DNA from: an uncultured Eubacteriales bacterium
GTDB taxonomy: Bacteria > Bacillota > Clostridia > Oscillospirales > Acutalibacteraceae
DNA length: 64,000 nt
Reading direction: 5' to 3'
Assembly (NCBI GenBank): GCA_964370115.1
Contig: CAYJIA010000002.1
Location: 9,361 to 73,360, forward strand
The translations under genes and the position numbers were made by a program. Under the pieces are notes generated by a model. It saw nothing but the letters and a program-made list of their open reading frames with translations, was not told where the DNA came from and ran no database searches. Of the stretch, positions 6,021-54,618 are shown piece by piece. Numbering within the stretch: position 1 is the first letter of the stretch; every line of letters starts with the position of its first letter.

Positions 6021-6248
6021 ATGTATTCTCGTATAAGAAATTTAAGAGAAGATAAAGATTTAAAGCAAGTTCAAATGGCAGATTTTTTGTGCGTTTCTCA
6101 AACTACATATTCAAGATACGAAAGTGGTGTCTTAGATATCCCCACAGAAGTATTAAAGCAGTTAGCATTGTTTCATTGTGTTAGTGTTGATTATTTAATA
6201 GAAATGACAGATGTGAAAAAACCATATCCTAAAATTAATAAAAAATAG
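6021..6248 (+). CDS. XRE-family HTH transcriptional regulator (75 aa)
   Basis: Cro/CI-type HTH (QVQMADFLCVSQTTYSRYESG). Same length as 10800..11027 and about 40 percent identical by eye, including the shared C-terminal TD.KKPY. Confidence 0.85.
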   Translation: MYSRIRNLREDKDLKQVQMADFLCVSQTTYSRYESGVLDIPTEVLKQLALFHCVSVDYLIEMTDVKKPYPKINKK

Positions 6249-6260
6249 AATTATAATCAT

Positions 6261-6287
6261 AAGGACAACCACAAAATGGTTGTCCTT
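6261..6287 (+). terminator. hairpin downstream of the XRE gene
   Basis: AAGGACAACC-acaaaat-GGTTGTCCTT, a 10-bp stem followed by only a weak T tract. Confidence 0.5.
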
Positions 6288-6289
6288 AA

Positions 6290-6418
6290 TTCTTAAAAAA
6301 TAAAGGGCGCCGAAACGACGCCCTTACAATGTTAATTTGAAATTTGTGGAAAATATAATCATACCACGCCGACGGCGTGAACCATAATTATTCCTTATTC
6401 ATTATTAATTATCAATTA
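6290..6418 (-). repeat. intergenic composite repeat (AT arm + CACGCC hairpin + GC hairpin)
   Basis: Read from the pgm stop on the minus strand: a stop-rich arm (taattgataattaataatgaataaggaataatt), ATGG, then hairpin TTCACGCC-GTC-GGCGTGG (6364-6383). Next come the ttccacaaatttc motif and hairpin GGGCGTCG-TTT-CGGCGCCC (6305-6323) with a 5' GTAA. The same modules recur elsewhere in the window. Confidence 0.75.
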
Positions 6419-11804: not shown

Positions 11805-12506
11805 TTAAACCGTAATAATAGTTACGTCGTGGTGGAACTGAAGTACCGATGCAGGCACGTCAGTTGTTACTTTTCCATACATTGCACGTTCAATTATGTC
11901 GCCTTTGTCTGCACCTGCTATTAGCAGGATTTTTTTTGCCCTAAGTATGGTGCCTATGCCCATGGTTATTGCTTGTTTTGGCACTTCTTCTTCATTTTCA
12001 AACAATCTAGCATTTGCTGTAATTGTGCTTTCAGTTAAATTGGCACCATGAACAAAACGTGGAAATCTGTCGCAAGGTTCGTTAAAACCTATGTGACCGT
12101 TATGCCCTATTCCCAAAAGTTGTAAGTCCACGTTACCCATACTTTGTATAAGCTTTTCATAGTCCTCACACTCTTTTTCTAGGTCGTCTGCCATTCCGTT
12201 TGGCACGTGTGTATTTTCCTTGTTGATATTAACTTTATCAAATAAGTGTTCATTCATAAAATATCTGTAGCTTTGTGGGTGAGTTCCAGCAAGGCCGTAA
12301 TATTCGTCTAGGTTAACTGTTTTTACCTGAGAAAAATCTAGCAGACCTTTATTGTAATCCTCAACCAAATGCTTGTAGACACCAATTGGAGAAGAACCCG
12401 TTGCAAGGCCTAGTACCGATTTTGGATTTGACAAAACTTGTGCTGCAATAATTCTAGATGCCAAAGTGCTCATTTCTTCGTAACTTTTTACTTTAATAAT
12501 ATTCAT
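11805..12506 (-). CDS. nagB: glucosamine-6-phosphate deaminase
   Basis: 233 aa with LGLATGSSP and GIGHNGHIGFNEP motifs. Confidence 0.9.
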   Translation of the reverse strand: MNIIKVKSYEEMSTLASRIIAAQVLSNPKSVLGLATGSSPIGVYKHLVEDYNKGLLDFSQVKTVNLDEYYGLAGTHPQSYRYFMNEHLFDKVNINKENTHVPNGMADDLEKECEDYEKLIQSMGNVDLQLLGIGHNGHIGFNEPCDRFPRFVHGANLTESTITANARLFENEEEVPKQAITMGIGTILRAKKILLIAGADKGDIIERAMYGKVTTDVPASVLQFHHDVTIITV

Positions 12507-12521
12507 ATTTATTATCCTCCT

Positions 12522-13892
12522 TTATGCTTTCTTTTTTGTGTCTCGAGTTAAATTTTTAATCCAGTTATAATTTCTATTTATCTTTACAACGGCTACAAAG
12601 CATTTTAGTATTTGGTCACATTTTAGGCAAGCAAACACAATCCACGGTGCCGCACCTAACATTAGTGCTATTATTGACGATGGAATGACCACTAAAAATA
12701 CAAATATCGTGTCGTTTTTAAAGACAAAGCTTATGTCTCCGCCTGATTTAACCAGCCCAAACAGACAAGCCGCCTGATAGCAAGTACCTATAATCGTAAT
12801 GCTTATTACATTGATAAATTGCTTAGAGTAGCCAACTGCCTCGGGGCTTATGTCGTATAGTGAAATAAATCCGTCTCGAAGGAAAAACACCACTGCACCG
12901 GATATCACACCTACTACTAAGAACATAATTTGAACTGTTTTTGCAATTTCCTTTACTTTTTCTATCTTGCCCTCGCCCACTGTTTTTCCGACTATTATGC
13001 CGACACCGCCAGATAGACCTGTCATCCAGATATATACCATGTTGTGAAGCATTCCTGCAACTGCTGTCGCCGCTATAACCTCTGCGGAAAATCTGCCTAA
13101 AATAATTGTGTTTGCAATCATATTGCAACCCCAAACAACTTGTCCACCAAAGACGGGCAAGCCGTACTTGATGAAATCTTTAAATATCACTTTGTCGTGA
13201 CTTACTATGTCTTTTAGAGTTAGTTTTAGCTTTTTATCCCTAAATTTTACATAGTATAGTACAAATGCAAACTCCACTCCTCTTGAAATTAGAGTTGCAA
13301 TCGCTGCGCCCTTTACTCCCATTGCAGGAATTACGCCCTCGATACCAAAAATTAGTAAATAGTTAAGCCCTACATTAACGAATAATGCCATTATAGAAAC
13401 ATAGAGTCCGAGTTTTGCTGTTTCTACACTTCTTAATGAAGCAATAAACATTTGAGTAAATGCAAAGAGCAAATATGAGAAACCGACTATTCTAAGATAA
13501 ACTTCGCCCTCTTTTATGACATTAATATCATTTGTCAAAAGGCTTAAAACTTGATGTGGAAAAATTGTCGCCGCAAGTGTAAACAAAAGTCCACATACCA
13601 GTGCAAACTTAAATGCGACACCGGAAATTTTCTTTATACTGTCCACGTCTTTTTTTCCCCAGTACTGAGCACCAAGGATTAGTATTGCGCCCTCGATTCC
13701 AACCGTAAAAATTTGCAAAACTGTTTGTACTTGATTTCCCATGTACACGCCCGACACCGCATTGTCACCAAGCGAGCCTATCATTAAGTTATCGGCAAAA
13801 CCTACCATAAAGGTGATTAGGTTTTGTAGCGAAATAGGCACAGCGAGCGCCAAAAGCGTTTTGTAAAAGGATCTATCCCTTGAAATGAGCAT
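12522..13892 (-). CDS. MATE-family efflux transporter
   Basis: 456 aa, 12-TM pattern, MATE N-terminal consensus (LLALAVPISLQNLITFMVGFADNLMIG). Confidence 0.85.
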   Translation of the reverse strand: MLISRDRSFYKTLLALAVPISLQNLITFMVGFADNLMIGSLGDNAVSGVYMGNQVQTVLQIFTVGIEGAILILGAQYWGKKDVDSIKKISGVAFKFALVCGLLFTLAATIFPHQVLSLLTNDINVIKEGEVYLRIVGFSYLLFAFTQMFIASLRSVETAKLGLYVSIMALFVNVGLNYLLIFGIEGVIPAMGVKGAAIATLISRGVEFAFVLYYVKFRDKKLKLTLKDIVSHDKVIFKDFIKYGLPVFGGQVVWGCNMIANTIILGRFSAEVIAATAVAGMLHNMVYIWMTGLSGGVGIIVGKTVGEGKIEKVKEIAKTVQIMFLVVGVISGAVVFFLRDGFISLYDISPEAVGYSKQFINVISITIIGTCYQAACLFGLVKSGGDISFVFKNDTIFVFLVVIPSSIIALMLGAAPWIVFACLKCDQILKCFVAVVKINRNYNWIKNLTRDTKKKA

Positions 13893-13985
13893 AAAATATA
13901 TTCCCCCAAATTTATTTATTTTCTATCTTAACATATTATATTTACCGAATAAAGCCAGTTTATCTATAAAAGTATTACAATTCTA

Positions 13986-14732
13986 TTATAATGGAGATTT
14001 AGAAATTTTAGAGCCGTGTCTTGGGTATTTTTCGGGGGTTGGTTTTACCTTTTCAAAGATAGAAATATTTCTTTCACTTTTCTCTAAATCGGGTAAATAA
14101 AGTGTTTCTGATTTTGCAAGCTTTGCGCCCAAGGTCGTTACAGCCTTTTGCCCAGCTTTTAGCTCTTCGTCAAATTTTGGCCCTTTCATGCTGACAAATT
14201 TTCCGCCGACTTTCACAAGTGGTATGCAGTACTCGGACAAAACACTCAGCTTTGCCACTGCCCTTGCACAGGATATGTCAAACTGCTCTCTAAGCTCTTC
14301 GTCTCTTCCCGCGTCCTCTGCCCTCATGTGGATATAGTCAAGTTCAAGACCTAGCTCTTCGCCTAATGCTTTTAAGAAAACCAGTCTCTTATTAAGTGAA
14401 TCGAGCAAGGTCATTTTAATGTCGGGTCTGACTATTTTTATTACCACTCCAGGAAAACCGGCACCAGTGCCGACGTCTATGAAGCTTGAGTTTTGCGGTA
14501 TGTCTACGGTTTTTAATAGATATAGGCTGTCGATGAAGTGTTTAATGATTACGTCTTTAGGCTCTGTAATGGCCGTAAGATTAACTTTTTCATTCCACTC
14601 GACTAGCATTTCTAAATATCTAATCAGTTTTTCAGCCTGATTTTCAGAAATCTCTATTTCTTCGCTTTCGCAACTTGCGATAAGGAAGTCTAAAATTTTA
14701 TTGTCCAATATTTTCACCTTTAGTCGTTGCAA
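13986..14732 (-). CDS. rsmG: 16S rRNA (guanine527-N7)-methyltransferase
   Basis: SAM motif FIDVGTGAGFPG, directly downstream of mnmG. A TTG at 14708 behind AAAGGTGA is a likelier start than the track ATG at 14732, which overlaps mnmG by 35 nt. Confidence 0.9.
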   Translation of the reverse strand: MQRLKVKILDNKILDFLIASCESEEIEISENQAEKLIRYLEMLVEWNEKVNLTAITEPKDVIIKHFIDSLYLLKTVDIPQNSSFIDVGTGAGFPGVVIKIVRPDIKMTLLDSLNKRLVFLKALGEELGLELDYIHMRAEDAGRDEELREQFDISCARAVAKLSVLSEYCIPLVKVGGKFVSMKGPKFDEELKAGQKAVTTLGAKLAKSETLYLPDLEKSERNISIFEKVKPTPEKYPRHGSKISKSPL

Positions 14733-43268: not shown

Positions 43269-43301
43269 GTAGAGGCTAAGGGTGTTCCACCCTTAGCCTC
43301 T
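43269..43301. terminator. 14-bp perfect hairpin between convergent genes
   Basis: AGAGGCTAAGGGTG-ttc-CACCCTTAGCCTCT, with GTAG overlapping its 5' foot and no clear T tract on either side. Probable bidirectional terminator at the distal end of the phage-like locus. Confidence 0.5.
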
Positions 43302-43322
43302 AGTAATTAATTCAACCCGCAA

Positions 43323-43787
43323 CTACAAATATTCAAAAGCTATATTGACATTTATTGGCAGAGTTTGTTTTGCCACTTGCTCAAATTCTTCTTGGCTTAG
43401 GTTATTAAGACTTTGTACTCTTAGGGTGCAAAGATTGTTTTCACCCTCCACTAACTCTCCGACAAAGCCTATATCCGAAAGTTTTTGTAGCACAGTGGTT
43501 TTAGAAAACGGATTTTCGTAAAGCCTAACTTTTGCCAAAATCTTGTTTTTTCTGTCCTCTATAGTGCCAAGAGCCGTGCTACCCGTGATTTTTTCGAATT
43601 TTTTCAGCGTTTGCTCATCACAGCTTTTTATAAAAAAGTTATCAATCGTTTGTTCTATATAGCTGTTAATCAACTCAAATCCTTTGGCCCATGCGCTGAG
43701 TTTTGCCTCTATAAGTGGTGTGCTGGGACTTAGGATTTTTATTTCTTCAAGTACTTTTACCATGTTTAAGTAATTTAAGTTCTCCAT
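43323..43787 (-). CDS. baseplate/tail protein, XkdU / Mu gp48 / P2 gpI-like (DUF2313)
   Basis: 154 aa directly after the baseplate J-like gene. The N-terminal LNYLNMVKVLEEIKILSPS...AKLSAWAK pattern and the gene position fit DUF2313. Confidence 0.5.
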   Translation of the reverse strand: MENLNYLNMVKVLEEIKILSPSTPLIEAKLSAWAKGFELINSYIEQTIDNFFIKSCDEQTLKKFEKITGSTALGTIEDRKNKILAKVRLYENPFSKTTVLQKLSDIGFVGELVEGENNLCTLRVQSLNNLSQEEFEQVAKQTLPINVNIAFEYL

Positions 43788-43796
43788 AGCTCACCT

Positions 43797-44855
43797 CTAA
43801 AGTGTCGACGTGATAGAAATATGTCCGGGAACCAAAACTTCACTCACAGCGGCAAGAAAATCATTTAGATAGGCAGAAGTCTTTGTAGTATAAATCTCGG
43901 CATTCTCGAGCAAAAGTTTTGTCAAAGAGGAGATATACAAATCTTCGCCAACTTTTAAATTATTGATGTAATCTGTGACAAGTGTTTTGCAGTGGTCAAG
44001 TACGGTGACAGTGTCAAATCCCTTGTTTATTTTTACGCCTATCGGAACATCAACAGTACGCTGGGTGGCAGAAACTACGTCTATAGTTGTGTTAATTTCT
44101 CTGTATGATTTAAGCAAGGCTTCAAGCTCGGATATAGTCGCACTTGGAACGGCGCTGTCCTTGCCCCAAACGTATACGTAAATATGGGTGGGGTCCTCGT
44201 CGTCTCGGTAAATACTTGCGGAAAAAACACCATCAAAGTTTTCTGCTATCGTCTTAAAAAAGGCATAGTTTGTACCGTTTGATATATCGCTCATTGTGGC
44301 AATTACTCGCTCGCGGTAGCTTTCTATATTTTCCTCGTCTTCGCCACCATAAAAAGCTTCGGGATTTGTGACCGAGATTATACCCTCGGGCGAGGTTATC
44401 AAGGTGGTTATTGTATTAGGTGCGGCGTTGTATATCTTTCCCCCATTTACAGACTCGGCATAGGCAAAGCCTTCTGTTGATCCAGCGCGTATAATAGAAG
44501 GTTTTGTGGTTTGATACTGTGCCTGTGCATCTCCACTTATAGCGCACAGCGTTCCTGTGGGTATTGCTAAGTCATAACTTGCTGCCTCTGCGCGATTAAA
44601 TAAAAGGGTGCCCTGTGCCACGACGGCAGGTTTTTTTTCTATGCTTCGGTCAAGTGCGTGTCTGTCAAGATATTCACCACTTGCCGTTGTTAAAAATGCC
44701 TGATCTTTTATCCAGTCCAGACTTTTAGAAAGTGCATAAATTTCGCCTGCTAAAATCTGGATTTGAATACCATCTACAGAGCTTAGATGTGGGGTATATC
44801 CGCTTTTTTCTTTAAATGCTTCATTCATTTGCAAAAGTATTTCTTCGTAGTCCAT
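43797..44855 (-). CDS. baseplate J-like protein (XkdT / Mu gp47)
   Basis: 352 aa from ATG 44855 (GGGAG 8 nt upstream; the track start at 44885 overlaps the upstream gene). Size, position and sequence pattern (MDYEEILLQMNEAF...SGYTPHLSSVDG...) are typical of Baseplate_J. Confidence 0.65.
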   Translation of the reverse strand: MDYEEILLQMNEAFKEKSGYTPHLSSVDGIQIQILAGEIYALSKSLDWIKDQAFLTTASGEYLDRHALDRSIEKKPAVVAQGTLLFNRAEAASYDLAIPTGTLCAISGDAQAQYQTTKPSIIRAGSTEGFAYAESVNGGKIYNAAPNTITTLITSPEGIISVTNPEAFYGGEDEENIESYRERVIATMSDISNGTNYAFFKTIAENFDGVFSASIYRDDEDPTHIYVYVWGKDSAVPSATISELEALLKSYREINTTIDVVSATQRTVDVPIGVKINKGFDTVTVLDHCKTLVTDYINNLKVGEDLYISSLTKLLLENAEIYTTKTSAYLNDFLAAVSEVLVPGHISITSTL

Positions 44856-44856
44856 T

Positions 44857-45192
44857 TTATTGCTCCCTTCTAATAAAAATTTCACCTTCTGAAAACGGAG
44901 TTTTTATTGTGAAAATATAGTGTTCGTCGTCTTCAATGACGCCAAGTACACTTAGGTCAGGGTATTTTCTAAGCGCAAGACTTGCATAGGAAAACACTTT
45001 TTCCAGCCTGTGCTCGTCGCTTGATTTTACCGTGTGAATTTTACTGCCCAAAGTTTTATTATAAACAAATTTGCCAAGCGGAACGGCTATTAAAACAAGA
45101 GCACGCTGTAAAAATTCTTCGTGCCCATTTATCTGTACAGGCATCCCTTGGGCATTTGTGGCGATATCGCCTAAAGTTATTTTTGTATCCAT
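44857..45192 (-). CDS. baseplate wedge protein, gp25/GpW-like (XkdS, DUF2634)
   Basis: 111 aa between the spike-like and J-like genes, with pattern LGDIATNAQG...EFLQRALVLIAVPLGKFVYNKTLGSKIH. Confidence 0.5.
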   Translation of the reverse strand: MDTKITLGDIATNAQGMPVQINGHEEFLQRALVLIAVPLGKFVYNKTLGSKIHTVKSSDEHRLEKVFSYASLALRKYPDLSVLGVIEDDEHYIFTIKTPFSEGEIFIRREQ

Positions 45193-45195
45193 TAT

Positions 45196-45528
45196 TTAAC
45201 CTCCAGCAGATGTAAAAACTTGATTGTTTATCACAACGTCACCGTTGTTTTTAAGATGAATAAAGGCGCCACTTGCCGAGTAAAGGCAAATTTCACCTGC
45301 CTCTATGCTTATCGGTGACTGTTCTAAACTTCCAATGACCGCGCCATTTTGTAAAAATACAGGAGTGCCCGTAGGTGGCTTTGAGTAAAGACCGTAGGGT
45401 GTAGCAGTTTTTGGCTGTTTAAAGTTTTCATCTGCAACTACGGTGTAATGCTCGTTTTGAGACAAGACAAAGCCCGTGCTTGTGGCTGCCTCTGTTTTAA
45501 GTTCTGAAAGTTTTTGTGTAAGCCACAT
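45196..45528 (-). CDS. Mu Gp45-like baseplate spike/assembly protein V-like
   Basis: 110 aa. PYGLYSKPPTGTPVFLQNGAVIG...AGEICLYSASGAFIHLKNNGDVVI follows the Gp45 pattern (YG.sS.P..G..v....g; GE..ly...G..i.l...G.i.i). Confidence 0.55.
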   Translation of the reverse strand: MWLTQKLSELKTEAATSTGFVLSQNEHYTVVADENFKQPKTATPYGLYSKPPTGTPVFLQNGAVIGSLEQSPISIEAGEICLYSASGAFIHLKNNGDVVINNQVFTSAGG

Positions 45529-45530
45529 GA

Positions 45531-46406
45531 TTACACCTCCCTCACTCCTGAAATCTCGCTTTCCTCTTTGCCAAATTCATAGCTGTATTCTATATTTTTC
45601 ACCTTAATATTTACCCTGTCTTCACCGCTGTAAAATTCAAAATTGTCGTCAATTTCAAGAGGAATGAGCTTAGGGAATTTCAAGTGATAGGTCTCGTAAA
45701 CTTTAAATCGTTCAAAAGGAGGAATTGAATTTTGTGCGAAACGTATCCTTAAAATTCCCTTTGCTTTCTCATTTTCAAAGCAAGTAGCATAGGCTCCTGT
45801 GCTGGCGTCTTTATAGTACATGTGAGAGCAAACATCGTAGTTATTTCGGGAAAACTCAAAAAATTCTGGCGTGTCGTCCTCGTATACGCTCATAGTGTCC
45901 TTCTCTCCAAAGAGCACGGTATTATTATCTAAAACATGGAAAGAAGTAGAAAGGTAGTTTTCTGCAAAATTGCTTAAAACTTCATAAACACTGCTGCCCT
46001 TGTGCACGACAAATTCTGCCGACAGGGCATCATTTTGTTCTGAAATAACGCTCGAAAAGCCCAAGTCGCTTAAAAACCTGTGCTTTAGCAAAGGTACAGA
46101 AGGAAAGAAAATTGTTTGTGGCATGGCTTCGTTGTCAAGAAGAAGCGCCTCTATGCTCCTTGCGTAAATTTCGAGCAATTTACCGCTTTCGCCGTCGGTA
46201 AAAATAATTTCGTCGACAAGCCCCCAAAAGAGAGTACCGGTTGCTCCTTCAAGCTTAATATTAGTAAAATTTTCCGGTATTTTATCACAAGAGAAAACCG
46301 CGTGTAAGGCATCGGCAGGAGTTTTTTCATCTTTATGTATGCTAAAGTTCAGCACATTTTCGAGGCTTACAGTCTTTCCACTTTGTGTTGTTGCTAAAAA
46401 AATCAT
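45531..46406 (-). CDS. baseplate hub protein, XkdQ/YqbQ / P2 gpD-like
   Basis: 291 aa. Position after the LysM-like gene and the pattern F.G.V.EI.....g..LEIYARS.EALLLDNEA fit the XkdQ family. Confidence 0.5.
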   Translation of the reverse strand: MIFLATTQSGKTVSLENVLNFSIHKDEKTPADALHAVFSCDKIPENFTNIKLEGATGTLFWGLVDEIIFTDGESGKLLEIYARSIEALLLDNEAMPQTIFFPSVPLLKHRFLSDLGFSSVISEQNDALSAEFVVHKGSSVYEVLSNFAENYLSTSFHVLDNNTVLFGEKDTMSVYEDDTPEFFEFSRNNYDVCSHMYYKDASTGAYATCFENEKAKGILRIRFAQNSIPPFERFKVYETYHLKFPKLIPLEIDDNFEFYSGEDRVNIKVKNIEYSYEFGKEESEISGVREV

Positions 46407-46894
46407 CGTATAACCACCTGTTCCCCTTCTTTTAAATTATTGATATGCCTTATATGCCTGTTGTGTGAAACTAACCAGTCTATGCTTTTGCTACCGACAA
46501 AATCCCAAAGCCTGTCGCCTTGTTTTGCATAGAGCACACAGTTGTTTTCGACACTGCTTTTTTCGTTTGCCTCTACAAAGATAAAGTCGTATTTTAAGAG
46601 ATCATTATCGGGTAAAAACTGTGCACGAAGCTCGGTAAGCACCGCGTAAAAAGGCGTGAGCTTTGGTAAAATTAAATAGTTTGCGCCGTCTTTTGCAATC
46701 TTTGAAAGCTGTTCAAATTTTGCAGCACAGTCGCTACCAAAAAAATAGCCCTCACCCTTGACAGATTGCTGTTTTGTGCCAAGATAAAACATGGTAGAGC
46801 TGGTGTTTTCCATATTTTCGCCACCGCTAATTATAAGGGTCTCTGGGTTTACATCAAAGTCAAAGCTTCCAAAGCTAAGTTTCATCAAATCCAT
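46403..46894 (-). CDS. tail/baseplate-associated protein with C-terminal LysM-like segment (XkdP / Mu gp43 position)
   Basis: Likely start is ATG 46894 (AGGGGG 7 nt upstream). The C-terminus YAKQGDRLWDFVGSKSIDWLVSHNRHIRHINNLKEGEQVVI resembles a LysM / tail protein X fold. Confidence 0.45.
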   Translation of the reverse strand: MDLMKLSFGSFDFDVNPETLIISGGENMENTSSTMFYLGTKQQSVKGEGYFFGSDCAAKFEQLSKIAKDGANYLILPKLTPFYAVLTELRAQFLPDNDLLKYDFIFVEANEKSSVENNCVLYAKQGDRLWDFVGSKSIDWLVSHNRHIRHINNLKEGEQVVIR

Positions 46895-46970
46895 AACCAT
46901 ACCCCCTAAAAAAGCTTTGCTATATAACGTCTTGAGTCTCTTTGTATAGCATAGGAAAGTTGTTTTGCAT

Positions 46971-47615
46971 TCATATATGTACCCCCTCTATTTCAAGCTC
47001 TTTACAATGCCCACTTTCGTCAAATGCTGAGCTTAGAACACGGCAGTTTGTAAAGGAAAAATTATTGTAGCTAAAGTCAAAAATCGCCTCGTCGTCAAAA
47101 AGATTTGGGCTTGGTGCGACTATTTTTATGATATATTTTGGCTTAGAGATAAGTATGCTCTTAGCGCTTCCTATCGGTCTTATCTCCTGCCTTGCCTGTC
47201 TCGTTACGCTGACAGCCTTTGCCTTTACTTTTTTTCCGTCCACCAAAATCGTCTTGTTTAATAGGTCGATACTTAAAGTGCAGGGCAAAATTATAGAGTT
47301 AATATCATCGTCCTCTTTTATTTTTCCCCTTGTAATTGCAGTGATTTCATGAACACTGTTTTTTAAGACAGAACAAATTTGAGAAAAAATCTCCCCACCT
47401 GCCTTTGCGCCTTTGGTGACAGAAACATAAAGGGCTATTTCAAGCACTAAATGATTGTCACTTTGGTAATCTTCCTCTAAAACCGATAAAACGGCTATGG
47501 GCCTGTCAAAAAATCTGCTCGCCTGTGTATTTTCAAATTGATGTACAAAATCAATGTCAGAAATTTGGCCTTTTAAAAGCTCTATCATCTCATCAAGAAT
47601 TACTTCGCTCATCAC
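46971..47615 (-). CDS. phage structural protein, unknown (sits where tail completion, sheath, tube and tape measure genes would be)
   Basis: 214 aa, ATGA-coupled to the upstream connector gene and followed by the only sizeable gap (about 70 bp) in the locus. The N-terminal half vaguely resembles tail-completion proteins. Too short for a sheath. Confidence 0.5.
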   Translation of the reverse strand: MMSEVILDEMIELLKGQISDIDFVHQFENTQASRFFDRPIAVLSVLEEDYQSDNHLVLEIALYVSVTKGAKAGGEIFSQICSVLKNSVHEITAITRGKIKEDDDINSIILPCTLSIDLLNKTILVDGKKVKAKAVSVTRQARQEIRPIGSAKSILISKPKYIIKIVAPSPNLFDDEAIFDFSYNNFSFTNCRVLSSAFDESGHCKELEIEGVHI

Positions 47616-47935
47616 ATATCTCCCTCCTCTAAAATTATTTCAAGCACTGCCTTCATACAAAAAACACTGCCAAAAGTCTTTAGTAGTCCTGCCGACAATA
47701 CACGGTAGCTTTTTTCCTCAAAGTGCAAGGTGTCACCTGCTTTAAGGGTTAGGGCGTTTCCCATATAAAGGTAGGTAGGCGCGCTTAAAACTCCTGTCGG
47801 GTGAGGCTTCTTTTTAAAATTTCCGTTTTCTTTGTGCTCGGTTATAATTCCACGACAATTAAAACTCTCGTTCTCTTTAAAAACGGTGATAATATCTGCC
47901 TTTTTAAAAATTTTATTCACCATAAGGGCAGTCAC
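47612..47935 (-). CDS. head closure / head-tail adaptor protein
   Basis: 107 aa at the position, and of the size, of SPP1 gp16/XkdH-like head closure proteins. Confidence 0.5.
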   Translation of the reverse strand: MTALMVNKIFKKADIITVFKENESFNCRGIITEHKENGNFKKKPHPTGVLSAPTYLYMGNALTLKAGDTLHFEEKSYRVLSAGLLKTFGSVFCMKAVLEIILEEGDM

Positions 47936-48299
47936 CTTCTTCCAAAACGCTTATAAAGGCAAAATCGGTGGACTTTAAAATAGGACTAATTGCGCTTAGG
48001 GCATTGTTTATCATAGCCTGAGACTTACCTGTATCGGGATTTTTTATCTTCATTTCGCCAACGGTCATCTCAGAGGGTGTGTTTAAGCTCTCAAGATTTA
48101 TATGCTTGCAAAAAACAAGCGTAACCACGGCAAAATCAAGGCTTTCTTTATAACTGTTTATCACACGCGGGTCTAGGTCGTGCCTTAGCATATTATTTAT
48201 TTTTTCCATACTGCTGTTTATCAGTGTGTCAAAGTAGGGCGTGGAAACATCTGTGTCAAGCAGTGAGGAGAGTTTTTCGCTTATAGTAGCCTTGTTCAA
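47913..48299 (-). CDS. head-tail connector (gp6-like)
   Basis: Start moved to TTG 48299 behind GGAGGTG (track ATG 48353 has no RBS). 129 aa directly after the capsid gene. Confidence 0.5.
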   Translation of the reverse strand: MNKATISEKLSSLLDTDVSTPYFDTLINSSMEKINNMLRHDLDPRVINSYKESLDFAVVTLVFCKHINLESLNTPSEMTVGEMKIKNPDTGKSQAMINNALSAISPILKSTDFAFISVLEEGDCPYGE

Positions 48300-48366
48300 A
48301 TTTACACCTCCGTTTAAAATAATTAGGCGACGGCGACAATTGCCATCGCCCAATTTTTATATCACA

Positions 48367-49380
48367 TTAAGCCTTGTTAACTTTTATTGCCTTGGCTGCA
48401 TCTTTGAAGATTTTTGCAAAGCCAGTAATAGAGCTAATAACTGCTCTTTCAAGTTGTCTGTCTATAAGTTTGTCAAATTCTGTGAGAACTTGGCCAGCTT
48501 GAACCATTTCAAGCGCGCAGTTTTTGTCAAGGCCTATGATTGTATCTGCCGCCATGCTAGGCACATGGATTACATTTGCGCCAAGAGGAGTAGAAAGCTT
48601 GCCACTGCCGTGGAAGTTTAGCCCTGCATTAGCGTCTTTAAACTCGCTTATTTGCATAAGCTTTTTAATCATTTCTGTGCCTGCAACAATAGTGTTTAGC
48701 CCAAACGGAGCCAAATCTCCCCAAAGAGTCACTACATCAGAGTAGCTAGGGTCAGCCGTAATTGTTGTAGATGTAATAGCGTTAGAGTTTCCGTCTCCAG
48801 ATATAAGCACGTTAACGGCGTCTTTCATTTGCTGAGTGGCAATATATGAGCCGATTTGTCTTAAAGTAACGGTCAGTAAATCAATTTTTTGGAACCTTAA
48901 AGCCTCGTAAGAAGCCTGAAGCATTCTGCCACGCTTTTTAAGTGCGACAAGGTTTGCCGAAACTGTAATCTCTGTCTCGGGAATGGCAGTGCCCTCGCTT
49001 GTGTCCTTTAATTCTTTTGCAGAATCTGTAAGATTTGACACCACACTGCGATAATCCATAGAGTCAATATTTGTAACCGTTGCTACCATTTCGGGCAGAC
49101 GGTTGACGTCGTCCATGCCGATTTTTACAGAGCGTGAGATATACTCAGGAAAAAGCGCGGCACTAGAGGAAGTAGAGAAGAATTTCTCGATATTGTCAGA
49201 AGCAGAACCTGATACTTTAATGTCAAAACGCTTTAGCTGTCTTTGGAAGGCGTCGAATTTTTCGAGCTCAGTTCCTATGTAGTTTTTTGAGCTATCAAGG
49301 CTCTCTAAAACCTGTGTAAATGATTTACCCGGTACTCTGTACATGTCTTTTTCAATAGTGATATTTTCAAAATGTGCCAT
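48367..49380 (-). CDS. phage major capsid protein
   Basis: 337 aa from ATG 49380 (AAAGGA upstream). It follows the protease/scaffold gene, and the LFPEYISRSV... pattern and size fit XkdG-type capsid proteins. Confidence 0.7.
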   Translation of the reverse strand: MAHFENITIEKDMYRVPGKSFTQVLESLDSSKNYIGTELEKFDAFQRQLKRFDIKVSGSASDNIEKFFSTSSSAALFPEYISRSVKIGMDDVNRLPEMVATVTNIDSMDYRSVVSNLTDSAKELKDTSEGTAIPETEITVSANLVALKKRGRMLQASYEALRFQKIDLLTVTLRQIGSYIATQQMKDAVNVLISGDGNSNAITSTTITADPSYSDVVTLWGDLAPFGLNTIVAGTEMIKKLMQISEFKDANAGLNFHGSGKLSTPLGANVIHVPSMAADTIIGLDKNCALEMVQAGQVLTEFDKLIDRQLERAVISSITGFAKIFKDAAKAIKVNKA

Positions 49381-49395
49381 AAAATACATCCTTTC

Positions 49396-50331
49396 TTAAA
49401 TTACAAATTCATTGTAATCACTTTCGTTTTTTATTGGTTTTGAGTAAAGTTGTGGACTAAGTGGCAAGCTCTTTGATGCCTCGTTTATAAATACACTTTC
49501 AAGCAGAGAAAGTTCGTTTGTATCAAGCGATTTTATCATGTTGTCCACTATGCTTTGTGGCAGGTCTTTGTAAGCAATTTTAGAATAGAGTTTTATAGAA
49601 TTTTCAAGTTTTTCCCTATACATTTTGCCAAAAGCTGCGTCTTTTTTAAGACTTTCAATTTCCTTTGAAAGCTCTCTAAAAGACTTTTCATCAAAGCTTT
49701 GAAGCTTATGTGTCTCTTCGCTGTCAATTAAATCTAAAAGCTTTGTGACACCCGCCTTTCTTTGTGCAGGAACGGCGACGAATGAAAATTCATAGGCGTC
49801 TGTTGCCCCTATAAGTATTTTCACACAAAGAGAACCGCTATAGAGTTTTCCCTTTTGGTGGCTACAGTCTTCTTTTTTACAGATACTACAAATAGACTTT
49901 TCCACCTTGCAAGAAATGCTTACTTCCTTTAAAATACCGCTGTCTATTTTAGAGATAAGCTCTTCGTTCTTTTCGGTTTTAGGAATATAAGCCCAAGCCT
50001 TGAGTGCTGTGTAAACTTCGTTTAAAGAAGTAAGTTTTTCTTCGTCACGCACTACTTCGGTCTTGTAAATTCTTGCAGTTTGGTTTTCGCTTTTTCTCTC
50101 ATGGTTTAAAATGCCTGTCTTTCCCACAAACAACTGTGAGAGCTCGGTTAGGGTGTCGGGTGCAAAGCTTTCGTAGTCGCGGTCTACAAGGTTGTCGCAA
50201 AGTATTACAGAAAAAGTATAGACTTCGTCCTGTTTAAACTCACGCCTCGTGTAGCCGTTTATAAGCTTTATGTCCTCGCTGTTTTGTGCGGCTTCGTTTT
50301 TAATTACCGCCTGTCTGGTTTGATAGTTCAT
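49396..50331 (-). CDS. XkdF-like prohead protease / scaffold protein
   Basis: 311 aa. The N-terminal domain (ILNHERKSENQ..., AYEFSFVAVPAQRKAGV) resembles the XkdF family. The C-terminal third is coiled-coil-like, as expected for a scaffold. Confidence 0.55.
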   Translation of the reverse strand: MNYQTRQAVIKNEAAQNSEDIKLINGYTRREFKQDEVYTFSVILCDNLVDRDYESFAPDTLTELSQLFVGKTGILNHERKSENQTARIYKTEVVRDEEKLTSLNEVYTALKAWAYIPKTEKNEELISKIDSGILKEVSISCKVEKSICSICKKEDCSHQKGKLYSGSLCVKILIGATDAYEFSFVAVPAQRKAGVTKLLDLIDSEETHKLQSFDEKSFRELSKEIESLKKDAAFGKMYREKLENSIKLYSKIAYKDLPQSIVDNMIKSLDTNELSLLESVFINEASKSLPLSPQLYSKPIKNESDYNEFVI

Positions 50332-51421
50332 AGGCCTTTACCTCCAAATCTTTTGCCCTTGCATTATTAAGTCTTGCCACAGAGTGATCCACCTCGTCTT
50401 GAAGACTGATGTCGTCCCAAATGATTTCAAGTTCCTCGTCTTTTCCACAAAGTCTTAGCCACATAGTGCAAATTTTCATTAGCACGGGCTCCAAAAGTCG
50501 TCGATAGGCCTCGAGCTCACTTGTTAAAATATCCGCCTGTTGGCTGGACATTCTCTCAGTCGATGACCAAGAGAGCCCAAGTAAAAACGGAGGCAAGCCG
50601 ATTTTTGCAACAATCTGTTCAAGCATTTGCCTTACGGGGATGTTGCTATCTAGAATTTGGTTGTCGGCGCCTATAGCCTTGATGTTTACGTCTCCCACGG
50701 CAACAAAGTCGTTTATCTCATTGCTTCGCATGGCTTTTTGCCATTCTTTTGCAATGTTTTTTGCCTTTTCTGGCGCGTATACACTGTCGTCGCTTTTTGC
50801 AGTTACCGCAAAGCGCACGTTGCCTACCCTGTCCCAATTTTTGCCCATGGTCTTATAAATTTTTAAGAGTATGTCGCTGACAAAAGGAAGTCCCTCTAAA
50901 ATAGATACACCCATAATTTTGCCCGATGGCGGATTAAGTGCGCTCATCAGTAAAAGTTCGGGATATCTACAAGGCAGTTTTCGTCCGGTAGAAATAAGGG
51001 AGACTTGTACATTTAAAGGTGATACTTCTTTAAGCTCAATACTGTCGAGACTAGCGTTATAAAGTGCATATGGAACATGGTCTTTGAGTATTATTTCACC
51101 TATCGCAGTGCCATAGGTGAGTAAATCTTCTAAGTAAGTCGCGATAAAACAGTGTATGCCCTGCCCCATTGCACCCACTTTTACAGTTTTTAAAAATTTT
51201 GTGAGCTCATAACTGTCTGCATCGTTTTGGCACTTTACTTCAAAATCACCTATAAGCCGACAAATTTTGCCAATTGATGCCGAAATAATCGGTACACTTT
51301 CCTTTAAACTTTTGTAAAGAGCCCTGTCAAAATAGGTGGGTGGGTACTGATAAAGCTCTTTTTCTCTTGTTTGTACAGCAAGCGCAATGTCACCGCTAGG
51401 TTTTTTCTTTATTAATCCCAA
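50300..51421 (-). CDS. phage portal protein
   Basis: 373 aa, overlapping the terL stop. Position and the LPPFLLGLSWSSTE... core fit small HK97/PBSX-type portals. Confidence 0.65.
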   Translation of the reverse strand: MGLIKKKPSGDIALAVQTREKELYQYPPTYFDRALYKSLKESVPIISASIGKICRLIGDFEVKCQNDADSYELTKFLKTVKVGAMGQGIHCFIATYLEDLLTYGTAIGEIILKDHVPYALYNASLDSIELKEVSPLNVQVSLISTGRKLPCRYPELLLMSALNPPSGKIMGVSILEGLPFVSDILLKIYKTMGKNWDRVGNVRFAVTAKSDDSVYAPEKAKNIAKEWQKAMRSNEINDFVAVGDVNIKAIGADNQILDSNIPVRQMLEQIVAKIGLPPFLLGLSWSSTERMSSQQADILTSELEAYRRLLEPVLMKICTMWLRLCGKDEELEIIWDDISLQDEVDHSVARLNNARAKDLEVKAYELSNQTGGN

Positions 51422-52689
51422 GGTTTTTCTCCTTTCTCGCTTTGTGTTTCTCTTTTTACAGCATAGGTAAGTATGCCTTGTGAGTCCTCTAAAAATGTCG
51501 AAACAAAGTAGCGAATGTCGTCCATTGCATGGTCATTTTCTTTTTTAGGGCTGTCGTTTCCTCCGCTATTCCAAGAGTAAAGTGAAAATTCTTTTATGGC
51601 GCTGTGGCAGCTATGGCAAATTTTAATTTTGCCACTTTTTAAGGCACTGCTAACCCGCCTTATGCCATCAACGACATTATTTTTTGCAGGAATAACGGGA
51701 AATTTTCCAAACTTTTTTACGAGGGCTATAAAACTCGCTGCGGACGGGTCGATTATTAAGGCAGATATAGTCTTACCCTCACATAAAGCGCACATCTGTT
51801 TATAATGCTCTTCATCCGTTCTTTGATAGCCCTCTTTTCTCGAGTCGAAGTAGTACTCATCTACCCTGAACCAACAGCCCTTGTTCTCGCCCCAAAGACC
51901 TATAGAGCTAGGGTTTACAGTACCGTAGTCCATGGAAAGCGCCCAGCGCTCGAAAATTAGTGAATGATAATCATAAAACATTTTTTCATTCATAAAAGGA
52001 TAGACAAGGCCCTGTGCCTGTACCCACTCGCCAAGGATAAAGCGCTTATAAAAAACACCCGAAAACAAGTTTTGGTAGCGCTTTTTTGTATCAGCCGACA
52101 ATGATGGATTGTCTTCCATGGTAAAGTGTAGGTACAAGACATTTTTTTCTTCTAGTTTTGTTATCCAGTTAAGATAAAACCAGTGATAAGGGCTTTCGGG
52201 ATTACAATTAAACCAAAACTTTGCCCCCTCGACAGAACACCTTGCAAGTGCCTGCTCCACAAAAGAGCGAGGCATCAAGGCGACCTCGTCAAACAAAACG
52301 CCCGACAAAGTCATGCCTTGAATTAAAGCAGGGGAAGACTCGTCTTTTCCTCCAAATAAATAAAAATTAATGCTTATTCCGCTTGATGAAACAATCAGTC
52401 GATTTTCAGAAATTTTAAAAACAGTTTTAAAGCCAAGTTCATGAAGTACCGGCAGTATTTCGGCAATAATATTACGCCTTACAGCCCTAATGGTTTTTCC
52501 GCATATTGCAAAACTTCCCTGTCCCATTTCAAAAAATGCCCACATGATAAATGAGACCGACATGCAAAGCGTCTTGCCACTTCTTACTGCCCCGTCACAG
52601 ATAAGCGCAGTTTTTGTGTTTAGCGGGCTATCTTTGCACCACCAACACAAAGCCCTCATCTGCTTTTTTGAAAAAGCCACCGCCCTCAT
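51412..52689 (-). CDS. terminase large subunit (PBSX/XtmB family)
   Basis: 425 aa with Walker A DGAVRSGKT, Walker B-like GVLFDEVA, and a C-terminal nuclease region with DHAMDDIRY. Confidence 0.85.
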   Translation of the reverse strand: MRAVAFSKKQMRALCWWCKDSPLNTKTALICDGAVRSGKTLCMSVSFIMWAFFEMGQGSFAICGKTIRAVRRNIIAEILPVLHELGFKTVFKISENRLIVSSSGISINFYLFGGKDESSPALIQGMTLSGVLFDEVALMPRSFVEQALARCSVEGAKFWFNCNPESPYHWFYLNWITKLEEKNVLYLHFTMEDNPSLSADTKKRYQNLFSGVFYKRFILGEWVQAQGLVYPFMNEKMFYDYHSLIFERWALSMDYGTVNPSSIGLWGENKGCWFRVDEYYFDSRKEGYQRTDEEHYKQMCALCEGKTISALIIDPSAASFIALVKKFGKFPVIPAKNNVVDGIRRVSSALKSGKIKICHSCHSAIKEFSLYSWNSGGNDSPKKENDHAMDDIRYFVSTFLEDSQGILTYAVKRETQSEKGEKPWD

Positions 52690-52985
52690 GTTTCATCACC
52701 GTTTAATGATTTTGCCCCGTCAAGCAAAGCCTTGTAAAAACTTGGGGTAGCGTTGTTTGATGCGCTGAAATTTTCCATGCATTCAAGAGCCTTTAGCCTG
52801 TCGAAGAACTTAATCTCCATGGCGCCTCCCTTTGCCCGTTTAATTTCAGAAACAGAGAATAAATCCAAGTTTTTTAAAGTCCTGTAGCTAATGTCTTCGC
52901 AAAATAATAGCCTAACAGGGTCTGCAATGCTGCCGAAAGCTATTTTTTCATAACCTTCTAAGATTTTGTCGTTTTCCATAAACAC
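52686..52985 (-). CDS. terminase small subunit, C-terminal half only (P27/Terminase_4-like)
   Basis: 99 aa. ...IAFGSIADPVRLLF...LFSVSEIKRAKGG.MEIKFFDRLKALECMENF matches the oligomerisation half of P27-type small terminases. The N-terminal HTH half is absent. ATGA-coupled to terL. Confidence 0.55.
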   Translation of the reverse strand: MFMENDKILEGYEKIAFGSIADPVRLLFCEDISYRTLKNLDLFSVSEIKRAKGGAMEIKFFDRLKALECMENFSASNNATPSFYKALLDGAKSLNGDET

Positions 52986-53044
52986 CTCTTGAACAATATA
53001 TATTTAAAAGAGACTTCGGCCGAAAAGCCCTTTCACTTATGGGC

Positions 53045-53086
53045 AAAAAAATAAGAAAAGTTTCCCTAAAAAAGGAAACTTTTCTT
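53045..53086 (-). terminator. canonical intrinsic terminator oriented with, and about 60 bp upstream of, the phage-like operon
   Basis: The minus strand reads AAGAAAAGTTTCC-ttttttag-GGAAACTTTTCTT-AT-TTTTTTT (13-bp perfect stem plus T7). There is no minus-strand gene upstream of it. Confidence 0.7.
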
Positions 53087-53235
53087 TAAAAATTTATTTT
53101 TTTACAAATTTTGCAAAGATTTTGACACTTGAATGTGATATATAATTAAAAAATAAACATTTAATTTTATGTTCATTTATGATATAATCCTTATGTATAT
53201 TATGTAGGGAAGAAACAAATAGAGGGAGATTTATT

Positions 53236-54618
53236 TTGAAGATAGATTTAGGTAGCGATAAAATATCAAAACTTTTATGGCATTTAAGCATACCTGCCAT
53301 AATGGGAATGTTAAGCGGTGCTATATTAAATGTGGCTGACAGAATTTTTGTGGGCAGTATTAACGAGTATGCTCTGACAGCCGTTGGAATTACCATGCCC
53401 GTACAAGTCTTGCAAATGGCTTTTGTACTTTTAATAGGCGTCGGCTCCTCGTCCTTGATATCCATAAAACTAGGTGAGGAAAAAGTAGACGAGGCAAACG
53501 GCATTTTATTTCTGGCGTTTAAGTACATATTTATAAGCCTTGCGGTGTTTACCGTGGTTTTTATGATTTTTATAGATCCAATACTAAGTTTTATGGAAAT
53601 ACCCGAAAGCTCGTTTGACATGGCAAAAGAATATATATCCGTGCTTGTAATAGGCTCGGTGTTTGGGCTTCCCGGATACTGTCTTTCAAGCTCTTTAAGG
53701 GCAGTGGGTAAGGCAAGCGTCACCATGAAAATAATTATCTACACATCAATTTTAAATGTGATTTTAAATCCAATATTTATATATTTTTTAAACATGGGTG
53801 TAATGGGCGCAGGTATTGCGACAGTTATATCGCAAACCACACTAACAGTATATGTGATTTACTATTTTATAAAGGCAAAAGACATACCTGTAAATCTAAG
53901 ATTTAAAAATCCGCCAAAGGCTATGTCTCTTTTATGGCAAATAATGAAAACAGGTTCGCCGTCTTTTTATGTGCAAATATTTGCAACTGGTGTTAATACC
54001 TATGTAAACATATGCATAGTAAGCGTCGGAACAGATTTAGACATAGGAGCATTTACCATAGCCTCAACGATTTTCTCAGTCTATCAAATGGTGGTAGTAG
54101 GCTTGGGTCAAGGCGCACAGCCTTTGTTTGGGTACAACTGGGGAGCAAAAAAATATGGAAGAGTAGAAAAAACCGCAAGACTTTCGCTTATATACAGCTT
54201 TGTTTTGTCCACGGCGTTTTTTGCGGTGAGTATGCTAATTCCATATATATTAGTGCTTCCATTTGCAAGTAGCCCTCAGCTTATAGAGGCAGGAATAACT
54301 GCGACACGCTGGTATATGTGCATGGTACCTTTAATGGGTATGCAAGTAATATGTGCCCAGTATTTCCAAGCGGTAAACAAAACAAAGCTAACTACACTTT
54401 TAATGCTTTTAAGATACGGCCTAGCCCTTGCCCCACTTGTGTGGATTTTATCGCCACCATTAAAAATAACAGGCGTATACCTAGCCTATGCCCTATCAAA
54501 CTTCATAGCGGCAAGTATAGCGATAATGTTTATGTGGGTAGAGCTTAAAAAACTTAAAAAGATGAAAGAAGAACAAAAAAATACTGCAGAAGATTTCTCC
54601 TCTGCAGTCGGTTCATAA
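53236..54618 (+). CDS. MATE-family efflux transporter
   Basis: 460 aa, 12 TM, MATE consensus (LLWHLSIPAIMGMLSGAILNVADRIFVG). Confidence 0.85.
   Translation: MKIDLGSDKISKLLWHLSIPAIMGMLSGAILNVADRIFVGSINEYALTAVGITMPVQVLQMAFVLLIGVGSSSLISIKLGEEKVDEANGILFLAFKYIFISLAVFTVVFMIFIDPILSFMEIPESSFDMAKEYISVLVIGSVFGLPGYCLSSSLRAVGKASVTMKIIIYTSILNVILNPIFIYFLNMGVMGAGIATVISQTTLTVYVIYYFIKAKDIPVNLRFKNPPKAMSLLWQIMKTGSPSFYVQIFATGVNTYVNICIVSVGTDLDIGAFTIASTIFSVYQMVVVGLGQGAQPLFGYNWGAKKYGRVEKTARLSLIYSFVLSTAFFAVSMLIPYILVLPFASSPQLIEAGITATRWYMCMVPLMGMQVICAQYFQAVNKTKLTTLLMLLRYGLALAPLVWILSPPLKITGVYLAYALSNFIAASIAIMFMWVELKKLKKMKEEQKNTAEDFSSAVGS

Follow-up and report, generated by a model that had tools for sequence, protein, structure and literature searches.

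A phage-derived, host-maintained operon of Oscillospirales bacteria with a one-ring, non-contractile tail, possibly encoding a gene transfer agent-like particle

The window analysed here, a stretch of 64,000 nucleotides (64 kb; contig CAYJIA010000002.1, positions 9,361 to 73,360) from an uncultured Eubacteriales bacterium of the Acutalibacteraceae, contains a 9.7-kb phage-derived locus on the minus strand, running from position 52985 down to 43323. The locus was found to be a host-maintained operon that encodes a DNA-packaging head and a non-contractile tail of one ring, whose ancestor was contractile; this structural and evolutionary description is well supported. According to the open reading frame (ORF) listing of the window it consists of 14 consecutive minus-strand ORFs, all intact. 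Adjacent ORFs share 4-32 nt or lie 2-13 nt apart, except for a 70-nt gap between g08 and g09, and the GC content (0.38-0.42) equals that of the flanks. Both borders are formed by host genes, rnfCDGEAB and a GT2 glycosyltransferase gene on one side and a divergent MATE transporter gene on the other. No integrase, excisionase, replication or repressor gene was found in or beside the locus. The 14 genes are as follows, from the first gene of the operon to the last.

52686..52985, minus strand: g01, small terminase TerS, 97-99 amino acids (likely start, the ATG at 52979)
51412..52689, minus strand: g02, large terminase TerL of the PBSX family (Terminase_6N and Terminase_6C; phrog_2, E 1e-44)
50300..51421, minus strand: g03, portal (phrog_30703, E 4e-114; Phage_portal, E 5.5e-9)
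49396..50331, minus strand: g04, conserved head-assembly protein (phrog_16951, E 1e-89, a family of no assigned function)
48367..49389, minus strand: g05, HK97-type major capsid protein (PF25209; phrog_3922, E 3e-89)
47913..48353, minus strand: g06, putative head-tail adaptor (by position, first gene after the capsid gene)
47612..47935, minus strand: g07, putative neck or head-closure protein (by position)
46971..47615, minus strand: g08, tail terminator-tail tube fusion, 214 amino acids, the sole tail-shaft component
47262-47615, minus strand: terminator domain of g08 (about residues 1-118)
46974-47261, minus strand: tube domain of g08 (about residues 119-214)
46403..46900, minus strand: g09, XkdP-like, LysM degenerate (34-35 family members at the equivalent position)
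45531..46406, minus strand: g10, baseplate hub, Mu gp44 / P2 gpD-like (profile against PDB)
45196..45528, minus strand: g11, central spike, Mu gp45 / gpV-like (profile against PDB; 9ki1_V, Mu gp45, E 0.24, weak)
44857..45192, minus strand: g12, gp25 / XkdS-like wedge protein (by family attribution)
43797..44885, minus strand: g13, Baseplate J-like wedge protein (PF04865, E 6e-36; phrog_6, E 2e-55)
43323..43787, minus strand: g14, Mu gp48 / P2 gpI-like wedge protein, closing the operon (phrog_521 tail protein, E 1.6e-9; PF10076 at E 1.5e-6, which falls short of the curated cut-off)

A first-pass annotation of the same DNA had described 14 intact, tightly packed ORFs with ordinary chromosomal genes at both borders and no fibre, integrase or replication gene among them. 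The ORF listing agreed with the first point, profile searches identified the border genes as those given above, and the three gene types were absent from the locus here as well. Its terminase, portal, capsid, baseplate J and DUF2313/Mu gp48-type calls were borne out by Pfam, PHROG and NCBIfam. Its XkdF, LysM, gpD, gp45 and gp25 calls, made by eye, proved right in kind, but several of them have weak scores and the g09 of the window has no detectable LysM.

The composition of the tail was resolved by comparison with relatives. Same-strand ORFs of about 100 related loci were clustered into families (c numbers; loci and genomes carry L and G numbers), and tail layouts were tallied for 87 loci. The relatives encode the terminator and the tube as separate genes that flank a sheath gene. 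With hhalign, columns 10-129 of the g08 profile were aligned to the terminator-like family c14 (98.4%, E 6e-15) and columns 141-234 to the tube family c15 (97.5%, E 8e-12). An exhaustive search of 1.84 billion representative proteins with the g08 profile recovered 156 relatives. The stronger matches were mostly full-length fusions of 213-249 amino acids, and stand-alone proteins corresponding to the N-terminal part only (133-148 amino acids) or the C-terminal part only (119-130 amino acids) were also found among them. A word-indexed homologue search with g08 returned only the query itself. The AlphaFold2 model of g08, based on a 78-sequence alignment, had a predicted local distance difference test (pLDDT) score of 92.9, and its N-terminal domain matched lambda gpU, the Mu terminator and the collars of pyocin R2, diffocin and monocin in Foldseek. 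The model of a stand-alone c15 protein from L029 had a pLDDT of 87.4; its top structural matches were the tube proteins of phage 812, PVC, AFP, diffocin and Mu, Hcp, lambda gpV and that of RcGTA, all with probability 1.00. We conclude that g08 is a terminator of the lambda gpU fold fused to exactly one, covalently capped tube domain, and that the fusion is a conserved and confidently folding protein family, not a deletion scar.

The 2.28-Mb assembly, which is 97.5% complete, was then searched for further tail genes. Neither a sheath gene (PF04984, Phage_sheath_1) nor a tape measure gene (PF10145, PhageMin_Tail) was found in the whole genome, hidden Markov models (HMMs) built from the sheath (c23), tube and chaperone (c21) families of the relatives detected nothing outside the locus, and there is no second Baseplate_J or stand-alone tube gene in the genome. 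A supply of tail genes in trans was thus ruled out by the whole-genome HMM and Pfam searches; since sheath, tube and tape-measure genes do not exist elsewhere, the particle cannot draw on unlinked copies. The first-pass annotation had listed sheath, tube and tape measure as missing and had considered that the locus might depend on such genes elsewhere. The absence of sheath and tape measure extends to the whole genome, but the C-terminal half of the 214-amino-acid ORF (46971-47615) is a tube homologue fused to a terminator, and the genome holds none of the unlinked genes. The annotation had also held that its view would fall if this ORF and its neighbours turned out to be sheath or tube homologues. 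The ORF does carry a tube domain, which changes the model of the particle without rescuing the idea of a prophage remnant.

Selection on the operon was evaluated with the congeneric genome G008, whose locus (L099) has all 14 genes in identical order at 37-86% amino acid identity. In every one of the 14 genes the proportion of synonymous differences (pS) was 0.66-0.84 and that of nonsynonymous differences (pN) 0.08-0.40; pS is saturated, so the dN/dS values are upper-bound estimates. The lowest pN was found in the terminase and portal genes and the highest in the neck and baseplate genes, the latter having pN 0.29-0.37 vs pS 0.66-0.84. All 14 ORFs have remained open through this saturated divergence, indicating purifying selection. 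Counterparts of the genes that flank the G008 locus, among them HtrA and a PBP-FtsW block, lie in the 64-kb neighbourhood of the window in rearranged order, and the neighbouring host genes are 55-82% identical between the two genomes, the head genes 74-86%. The location of the flanks on the same 64-kb stretch and the comparable identities indicate that the two loci are orthologous and locally rearranged.

Inheritance with the host chromosome was also visible over larger distances. In nine species belonging to several genera, 13-570 bp lie between the end of the cluster and hflX; several of these loci share response-regulator, kinase and HtrA genes upstream. Portal/capsid identity tracked HflX identity among the nine species (Mantel r 0.90, p 0.0002). 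Where the conserved flanking genes could be identified they were host genes (HflX, HtrA, a two-component system, MATE and NagB), and none of the relative loci examined had an integrase, repressor or replication gene as a neighbour. In a scan of one genome per species, portal relatives were found in at least 590 species genomes; among the matches listed all were from Oscillospirales-type Clostridia, the best being 60% identical. The portal gene is carried by 11 of 17 congeners and by 39 of 41 genomes of another genus, that of G061, with one copy per carrier; a locus of the latter genus, L046, bears the label 'uncultured Faecalibacterium sp.'. Two congeners are 76-78% identical to the window, and the other congeneric carriers share about 56% identity with it; their tail modules differ, and so do their flanks in the cases examined. 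The preference of the first-pass annotation for a domesticated locus over decay is therefore upheld by purifying selection, the orthologous congener locus, hundreds of mostly single-copy, host-flanked relatives and co-divergence with hflX.

Two additional genes of 208 and 308 amino acids lie between HtrA and terS in G008 (L099, oriented positions 2518-4054) and have no homologue in the genome of the window. They could be cargo or regulators of the element.

The packaging and head genes were assigned as follows. TerS (g01) matched only positions 62-124 of the 141-position Terminase_2 profile, that is, its C-terminal part. Long TerS relatives have an extra N-terminal segment of 50-60 amino acids with a helix-turn-helix (HTH), recognized in the alignment by the motif LTxKEKxFCxxY..GN..AA.KAGY, and this segment is absent from the TerS of the window and of L099, L008, L010, L011, L014, L019 and L026. 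Because such a TerS lacks the sequence-reading HTH, packaging is probably non-specific. TerL (g02) matched the NCBIfam model of PBSX-family terminases, TIGR01547, above the curated cut-off (E 2.5e-54). In g04, residues C141, C148, C151, C156 and H158 of the N-terminal domain are invariant and the C-terminal half is helical. The protein gave nothing significant in Pfam or PDB sequence searches, and its match to the XkdF protease was sub-threshold (E 0.043); it is probably the scaffold and possibly a protease-scaffold. Relatives of the capsid protein g05 form more than 8000 clusters at 90% identity and, where named, are annotated 'phage major capsid protein', while g05 itself matched no NCBIfam model. 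The g06 protein showed weak HMM matches to the c0/c19 families, which occupy the adaptor position in relatives, and is 38% identical to its G008 orthologue (pN 0.39 vs pS 0.77). For g07 no family was found in Pfam or PHROGs; its own family has 11 members, always located between the adaptor gene and g08 (HMM E 3e-36 in its own genome).

Among the baseplate genes, the g09 homologue of L029 contains a clear LysM domain (E 3e-14), whereas in the window copy no LysM was detected and a weak GpU-like PHROG match was obtained. From its position before the hub gene, as in PBSX, g09 is probably the tube initiator, an adaptor ring between baseplate and tube. The g10 profile had no Pfam match; against PDB it matched 3d37 (43-kDa tail protein, E 0.002), 1wru (Mu gp44, E 0.31) and 3cdd (MuSo2, E 0.66), and these hub-type structures ranked 1, 2 and 8 of eight matches. 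That g11 directly succeeds the hub gene agrees with a spike, as does its C-terminus, which is Gly-rich and invariant. When 98 sequences of five families, 17 of them from the g12 family, were pooled, five matched PF10934 (Sheath_initiator, best E 7.5e-7) and two matched Mu GP46. These matches are attributed here to the g12 family, the matching members not being named in the output, and the g12 copy of the window itself had no Pfam match. Lineages without a sheath gene conserve this gp25/XkdS-type 'sheath initiator', which suggests that its essential role there is that of a baseplate wedge component. The g13 gene is the sole Baseplate_J copy in the genome. No fibre gene follows g14 at its 3' side in the window; many relatives have an extra 157-amino-acid fibre-like gene (family c7) at that place.

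Three further features lie at the edges of the operon.

43270..43302, minus strand: operon-closing intrinsic terminator (15-bp stem with 8 GC pairs, T-rich tail)
53053..53086, minus strand: hairpin (15-bp stem) followed by a run of seven T, about 70 nt 5' of terS
53016..53023, no strand assigned: perfect 8-bp palindrome TCGGCCGA, between the hairpin and terS

A hairpin with a T-run is present 60-110 nt 5' of terS in ten lineages (the window, L099, L100, L008, L010, L011, L014, L019, L020 and L026), with stem sequences that differ among lineages. In the window no co-directional gene precedes the hairpin at 53053-53086, which is probably an insulating terminator at the upstream edge of the element and possibly an attenuator instead. 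The palindrome TCGGCCGA, whose core TTTTCGGCCGA is kept in the two closest relatives, L099 and L100, is a candidate regulator site that would lie over the -35 element of a possible promoter. An Rfam match of the terS leader (52974-53091) to TD-1 scored 30 bits vs a gathering score of 64.5 and was taken as chance. Likewise, a 210-amino-acid ORF (53094-53726, minus strand) had no family match, overlaps the MATE gene on the other strand and is probably spurious.

The relatives form a graded series of tails behind a common head module, which in all loci comprises TerS, TerL, portal, g04, an optional gene of 113 amino acids and the capsid gene. Seven of the 87 loci have a sheath and a tube, arranged as c14, the sheath gene c23 (PF04984 and PF17482), c15, two small genes and the baseplate. 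In 15 loci c14 and c15 are present without a sheath gene. The fusion layout, with one gene of 213-243 amino acids (g08) replacing c14 and c15, was found in 14 loci including the window, and the 14-gene arrangement is shared by a cultured isolate, Scatolibacter rhodanostii Marseille-P3890 (L008). Another 12 loci retain a J-type baseplate in other layouts. The head genes are followed by two neck genes, a protein of 270-300 amino acids (c7) and then host genes in 21 loci; seven end after a c14-like gene or are otherwise head-only, and the contigs of the remaining 11 were too short to classify.

Two groups of relatives showed peculiarities of their own. The sheath-bearing loci L029 (positions 12095-14417), L036, L065, L072, L085, L004 and L107 encode sheath and tube and yet no long tape measure; only two ORFs of about 128 and 125 amino acids lie between their tube and LysM genes. 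Either a miniature tape measure gives a very short contractile tail or the length is set otherwise. The c7 protein of the head-only relatives (L022, positions 6144-6977, and about 20 other loci) has a terminator-like N-terminal domain (hhalign 92.6% to the N-terminal part of g08), and its C-terminal domain is that of the 157-amino-acid fibre-like protein found after g14 in baseplate-bearing loci. Baseplate_J was absent genome-wide from the four genomes of head-only relatives that were checked. This terminator-fibre fusion looks like an end point of tail reduction.

Some database records of relatives carry unexpected labels. L005 (MT835508.1, 46.7 kb) and L002 (MT835952.1) were deposited as 'Bacteriophage sp.' from human faeces and are actually fragments of bacterial chromosome, with ribosomal-protein and rnf operons and ABC-type genes around the relative of the element, which in L005 is head-only. 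These deposits are compatible with host DNA enclosed in particles, and equally with contamination. L014/L101 (CAVAMJ010000001.1) is titled 'Bacteroidaceae bacterium', although its genome, G002, falls in the Clostridia genus of the window, and the label is apparently wrong.

From these genes a particle can be proposed. The PBSX-type terminase would package DNA into the head, and with a TerS devoid of an HTH the packaging would probably not be specific for the element, so that host DNA is the expected content. The tail has been reduced from a contractile ancestor by deletion of the sheath gene and of the chaperone/tape-measure block and by fusion of the tube to the terminator. Outward from the portal, the predicted order is the neck rings g06 and g07, one ring of g08, the g09 adaptor ring and the baseplate, the last being of the Mu/PBSX type and composed of the hub g10, the spike g11 and the wedge g12-g13-g14. 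The head would thus sit nearly directly on the baseplate, connected through a short channel that does not contract. In the literature, neither a terminator-tube fusion nor a head-on-baseplate particle was found described.

On balance we favour, with moderate confidence, the interpretation that the locus is a phage-derived, host-maintained operon for a gene transfer agent (GTA)-like particle whose non-contractile tail is extremely reduced. On this view it is not a prophage in decay and is not self-mobile. Lysis and regulation would then be encoded elsewhere, and a dependence on unlinked lysis and regulatory genes is likely. A broader proposal is put forward more tentatively, as a possibility short of an even chance: that the relatives record the successive steps of tail reduction (sheath and tube, tube only, fusion, then terminator-fibre fusion without a baseplate), and that the new head-on-baseplate architecture represents the agents of host-DNA packaging in Oscillospirales other than Faecalibacterium.

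Several points weigh against this interpretation. That particles are made, carry random host DNA and deliver it is predicted from the genes, as are the assembly of a single tube ring on the hub without a tape measure and the passage of DNA through it. For the window locus no lysis or regulator gene was identified. The g10 and g11 assignments have weak scores, as does that of g04, and the saturation of synonymous sites limits dN/dS as stated above. The fusion is rare, occurring at full length in about 11 of 301 sampled species of the family, and a few g08-type homologues have an in-frame stop. Inheritance is not purely vertical, either: the portal is missing from 6 of 17 congeneric genomes, and loss, replacement and some horizontal movement evidently occur.

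Three other explanations were considered, and we rank them by plausibility as a particle that does not transfer DNA, a satellite and a decaying remnant. The first is unlikely but keeps some weight. Here the host would retain the particle for a function other than delivery, such as altruistic lysis or killing in the manner of PBSX, the supply of released DNA to biofilms or as a nutrient, or a phage decoy, and DNA-filled heads would be made without injection. Judged by TerL family and gene order, the closest characterised relative is PBSX, whose particles contain host DNA but are not known to pass it on to recipients. The missing fibre gene after g14 and the degenerate LysM might weaken adsorption, and the particles of FpGTA, the agent of Faecalibacterium prausnitzii, are likewise without demonstrated transfer (PMC12946183). 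However, a complete baseplate including hub and spike has been kept under purifying selection, which is hard to explain without adsorption or penetration, and killing by contraction is impossible without a sheath.

The second explanation, which we regard as improbable, is a satellite of the type of the capsid-forming phage-inducible chromosomal islands (cf-PICIs), which would make its own small heads, package itself and borrow tail parts, lysis and the induction signal from a helper. The locus is indeed compact, has its own terminase, portal and capsid and no lysis genes, and at 9.7 kb is close to the capacity of a small capsid; the long, HTH-containing TerS of many relatives would permit specific packaging, and satellite-like capsid clusters of Oscillospiraceae were noted in a mouse-gut preprint. 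Yet the locus and its borders are devoid of integrase, excisionase, replication and repressor genes, and none was seen next to the relatives examined; site fixation and co-divergence with hflX oppose mobility, and the TerS of the window lineage has no DNA-recognition domain. A resident helper could not provide a sheath or tape measure, as the genome has no gene for either, and with its own terminator, tube ring and complete baseplate the element has nothing obvious to borrow.

A prophage remnant is very improbable. Here a myovirus of the PBSX/Mu kind would have been stripped of the segments for tail shaft, lysis, lysogeny and replication, the ORFs still being open as the deletions are recent. 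The genes do follow the order of a myovirus late operon from which pieces are missing. Relatives with a sheath, and L079, which judging by its ORF sizes appears to have a sheath and a 772-amino-acid tape measure, show a contractile-tailed phage ancestor, and the g08 homologue of some relatives has in-frame stops. But against G008 synonymous sites are saturated with 14 ORFs intact in both genomes and pN far below pS, the 14-gene layout is present in S. rhodanostii and the fusion form in 14 loci examined, the element has co-diverged with hflX across deep host divergence, and the g08 fusion has a conserved, high-confidence fold.

If the GTA-like interpretation is true, a contractile-tail baseplate can work, or be selected, without sheath, tape measure and tube stack, and the graded relatives constitute an unusually clear record of tail dismantling during domestication. 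The terminator-tube fusion provides a prediction that can be tested by cryo-electron microscopy. The family is also of interest for the gut virome. Virus-like particles from faeces contain random host DNA of 4.6-8.9 kb, with Ruminococcaceae and Oscillospiraceae as its main sources (Borodovich et al., Nat Commun 2026, PMC12946183). Outside Faecalibacterium the gene clusters behind such particles are unidentified (PMC12946183; mouse-gut preprint), and the preprint, which noted the satellite-like clusters mentioned above, did not find GTA clusters of Oscillospiraceae. With host DNA in gut particles documented and the responsible cluster known only in Faecalibacterium, the present family is a concrete candidate, being found in at least 590 species genomes, single-copy, with an HTH-less TerS in the window lineage and a cultured carrier, Scatolibacter rhodanostii.

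Among known systems, PBSX of B. subtilis (xtmA-xtmB-xkdE...xkdV) resembles the locus of the window in its PBSX-family TerL, its chromosomal location and the lack of replication functions. The order of the late genes is also PBSX-like: TerS, TerL, portal, a protein at the XkdF position, capsid, neck, LysM protein, hub, spike, gp25-like, J-like and I-like. This likeness is one of gene order and of the TerL family model. PBSX has a contractile tail with sheath (xkdK), tube (xkdM), chaperone (xkdN) and a long tape measure (xkdO), whereas the window has no sheath, chaperones or tape measure and its tube survives as part of g08; PBSX further carries its own regulators and lysis genes, none of which is present in the window locus. 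TerL family and late-gene order thus agree with a PBSX-like element, and the contractile tail (sheath, tube, chaperone, tape measure) does not.

The GTAs of Alphaproteobacteria, RcGTA among them, are encoded by domesticated head-tail clusters that purifying selection maintains and that are passed on as part of the chromosome, while their lysis and regulatory genes lie elsewhere. The window locus shows the corresponding traits of a structural cluster without replication, integration or lysogeny genes among host genes, under purifying selection and with an HTH-less TerS. A TerS without a DNA-binding domain, shared by RcGTA and the window, has been invoked for non-specific packaging in RcGTA and is reported for FpGTA as well (PMC12946183). 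RcGTA differs in its siphovirus-type tail with a tube gene and tape measure and in belonging to Alphaproteobacteria; the tail of the window comes from a contractile ancestor and has a single fused ring.

The cf-PICIs (Alqurainy et al. 2023, as cited in the mouse-gut preprint) are likewise small chromosomal elements with their own terminase, portal, capsid and connectors and no normal tail. They possess integrase, regulation and replication modules and use helper tails, whereas the window locus has none of these and its own baseplate. The strain-variable insertion of such islands was not observed either, the site being fixed at hflX in nine species. R-type tailocins consist of sheath, tube and baseplate without a head, the reverse of the window locus with its head and terminase and no sheath, so the features of a tailocin or contractile injection system are not those found here.

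FpGTA of Faecalibacterium prausnitzii is the nearest functional precedent. It is encoded by two operons and forms capsids of about 40 nm without visible tails, with a TerS that lacks a DNA-binding domain; the particles hold about 8.5-9 kb of host DNA, the agent is present in all Faecalibacterium genomes examined, and transfer is undemonstrated (PMC12946183). Its capsid is annotated as N4-gp56 family and operon I includes a podovirus-type nozzle; the capsid protein of the window has no NCBIfam match, and no gene of the locus is of nozzle size. The second operon of FpGTA encodes a BppU-like fibre, a receptor-binding protein, a holin and an endolysin, whereas the window has a myovirus-type J/gp25/gp44 baseplate in cis. 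These differences are drawn from the published description and not from sequence comparison, and homology between the two is not shown; an exact-sequence cluster look-up aimed at FpGTA returned only 'Clostridia / Oscillospiraceae bacterium' metagenome-assembled genome accessions and no RCH508xx proteins. The two systems have in common an Oscillospirales gut host and an integrase-less operon of about 10 kb whose products include TerL, portal, scaffold, capsid and a TerS that lacks the DNA-binding domain.

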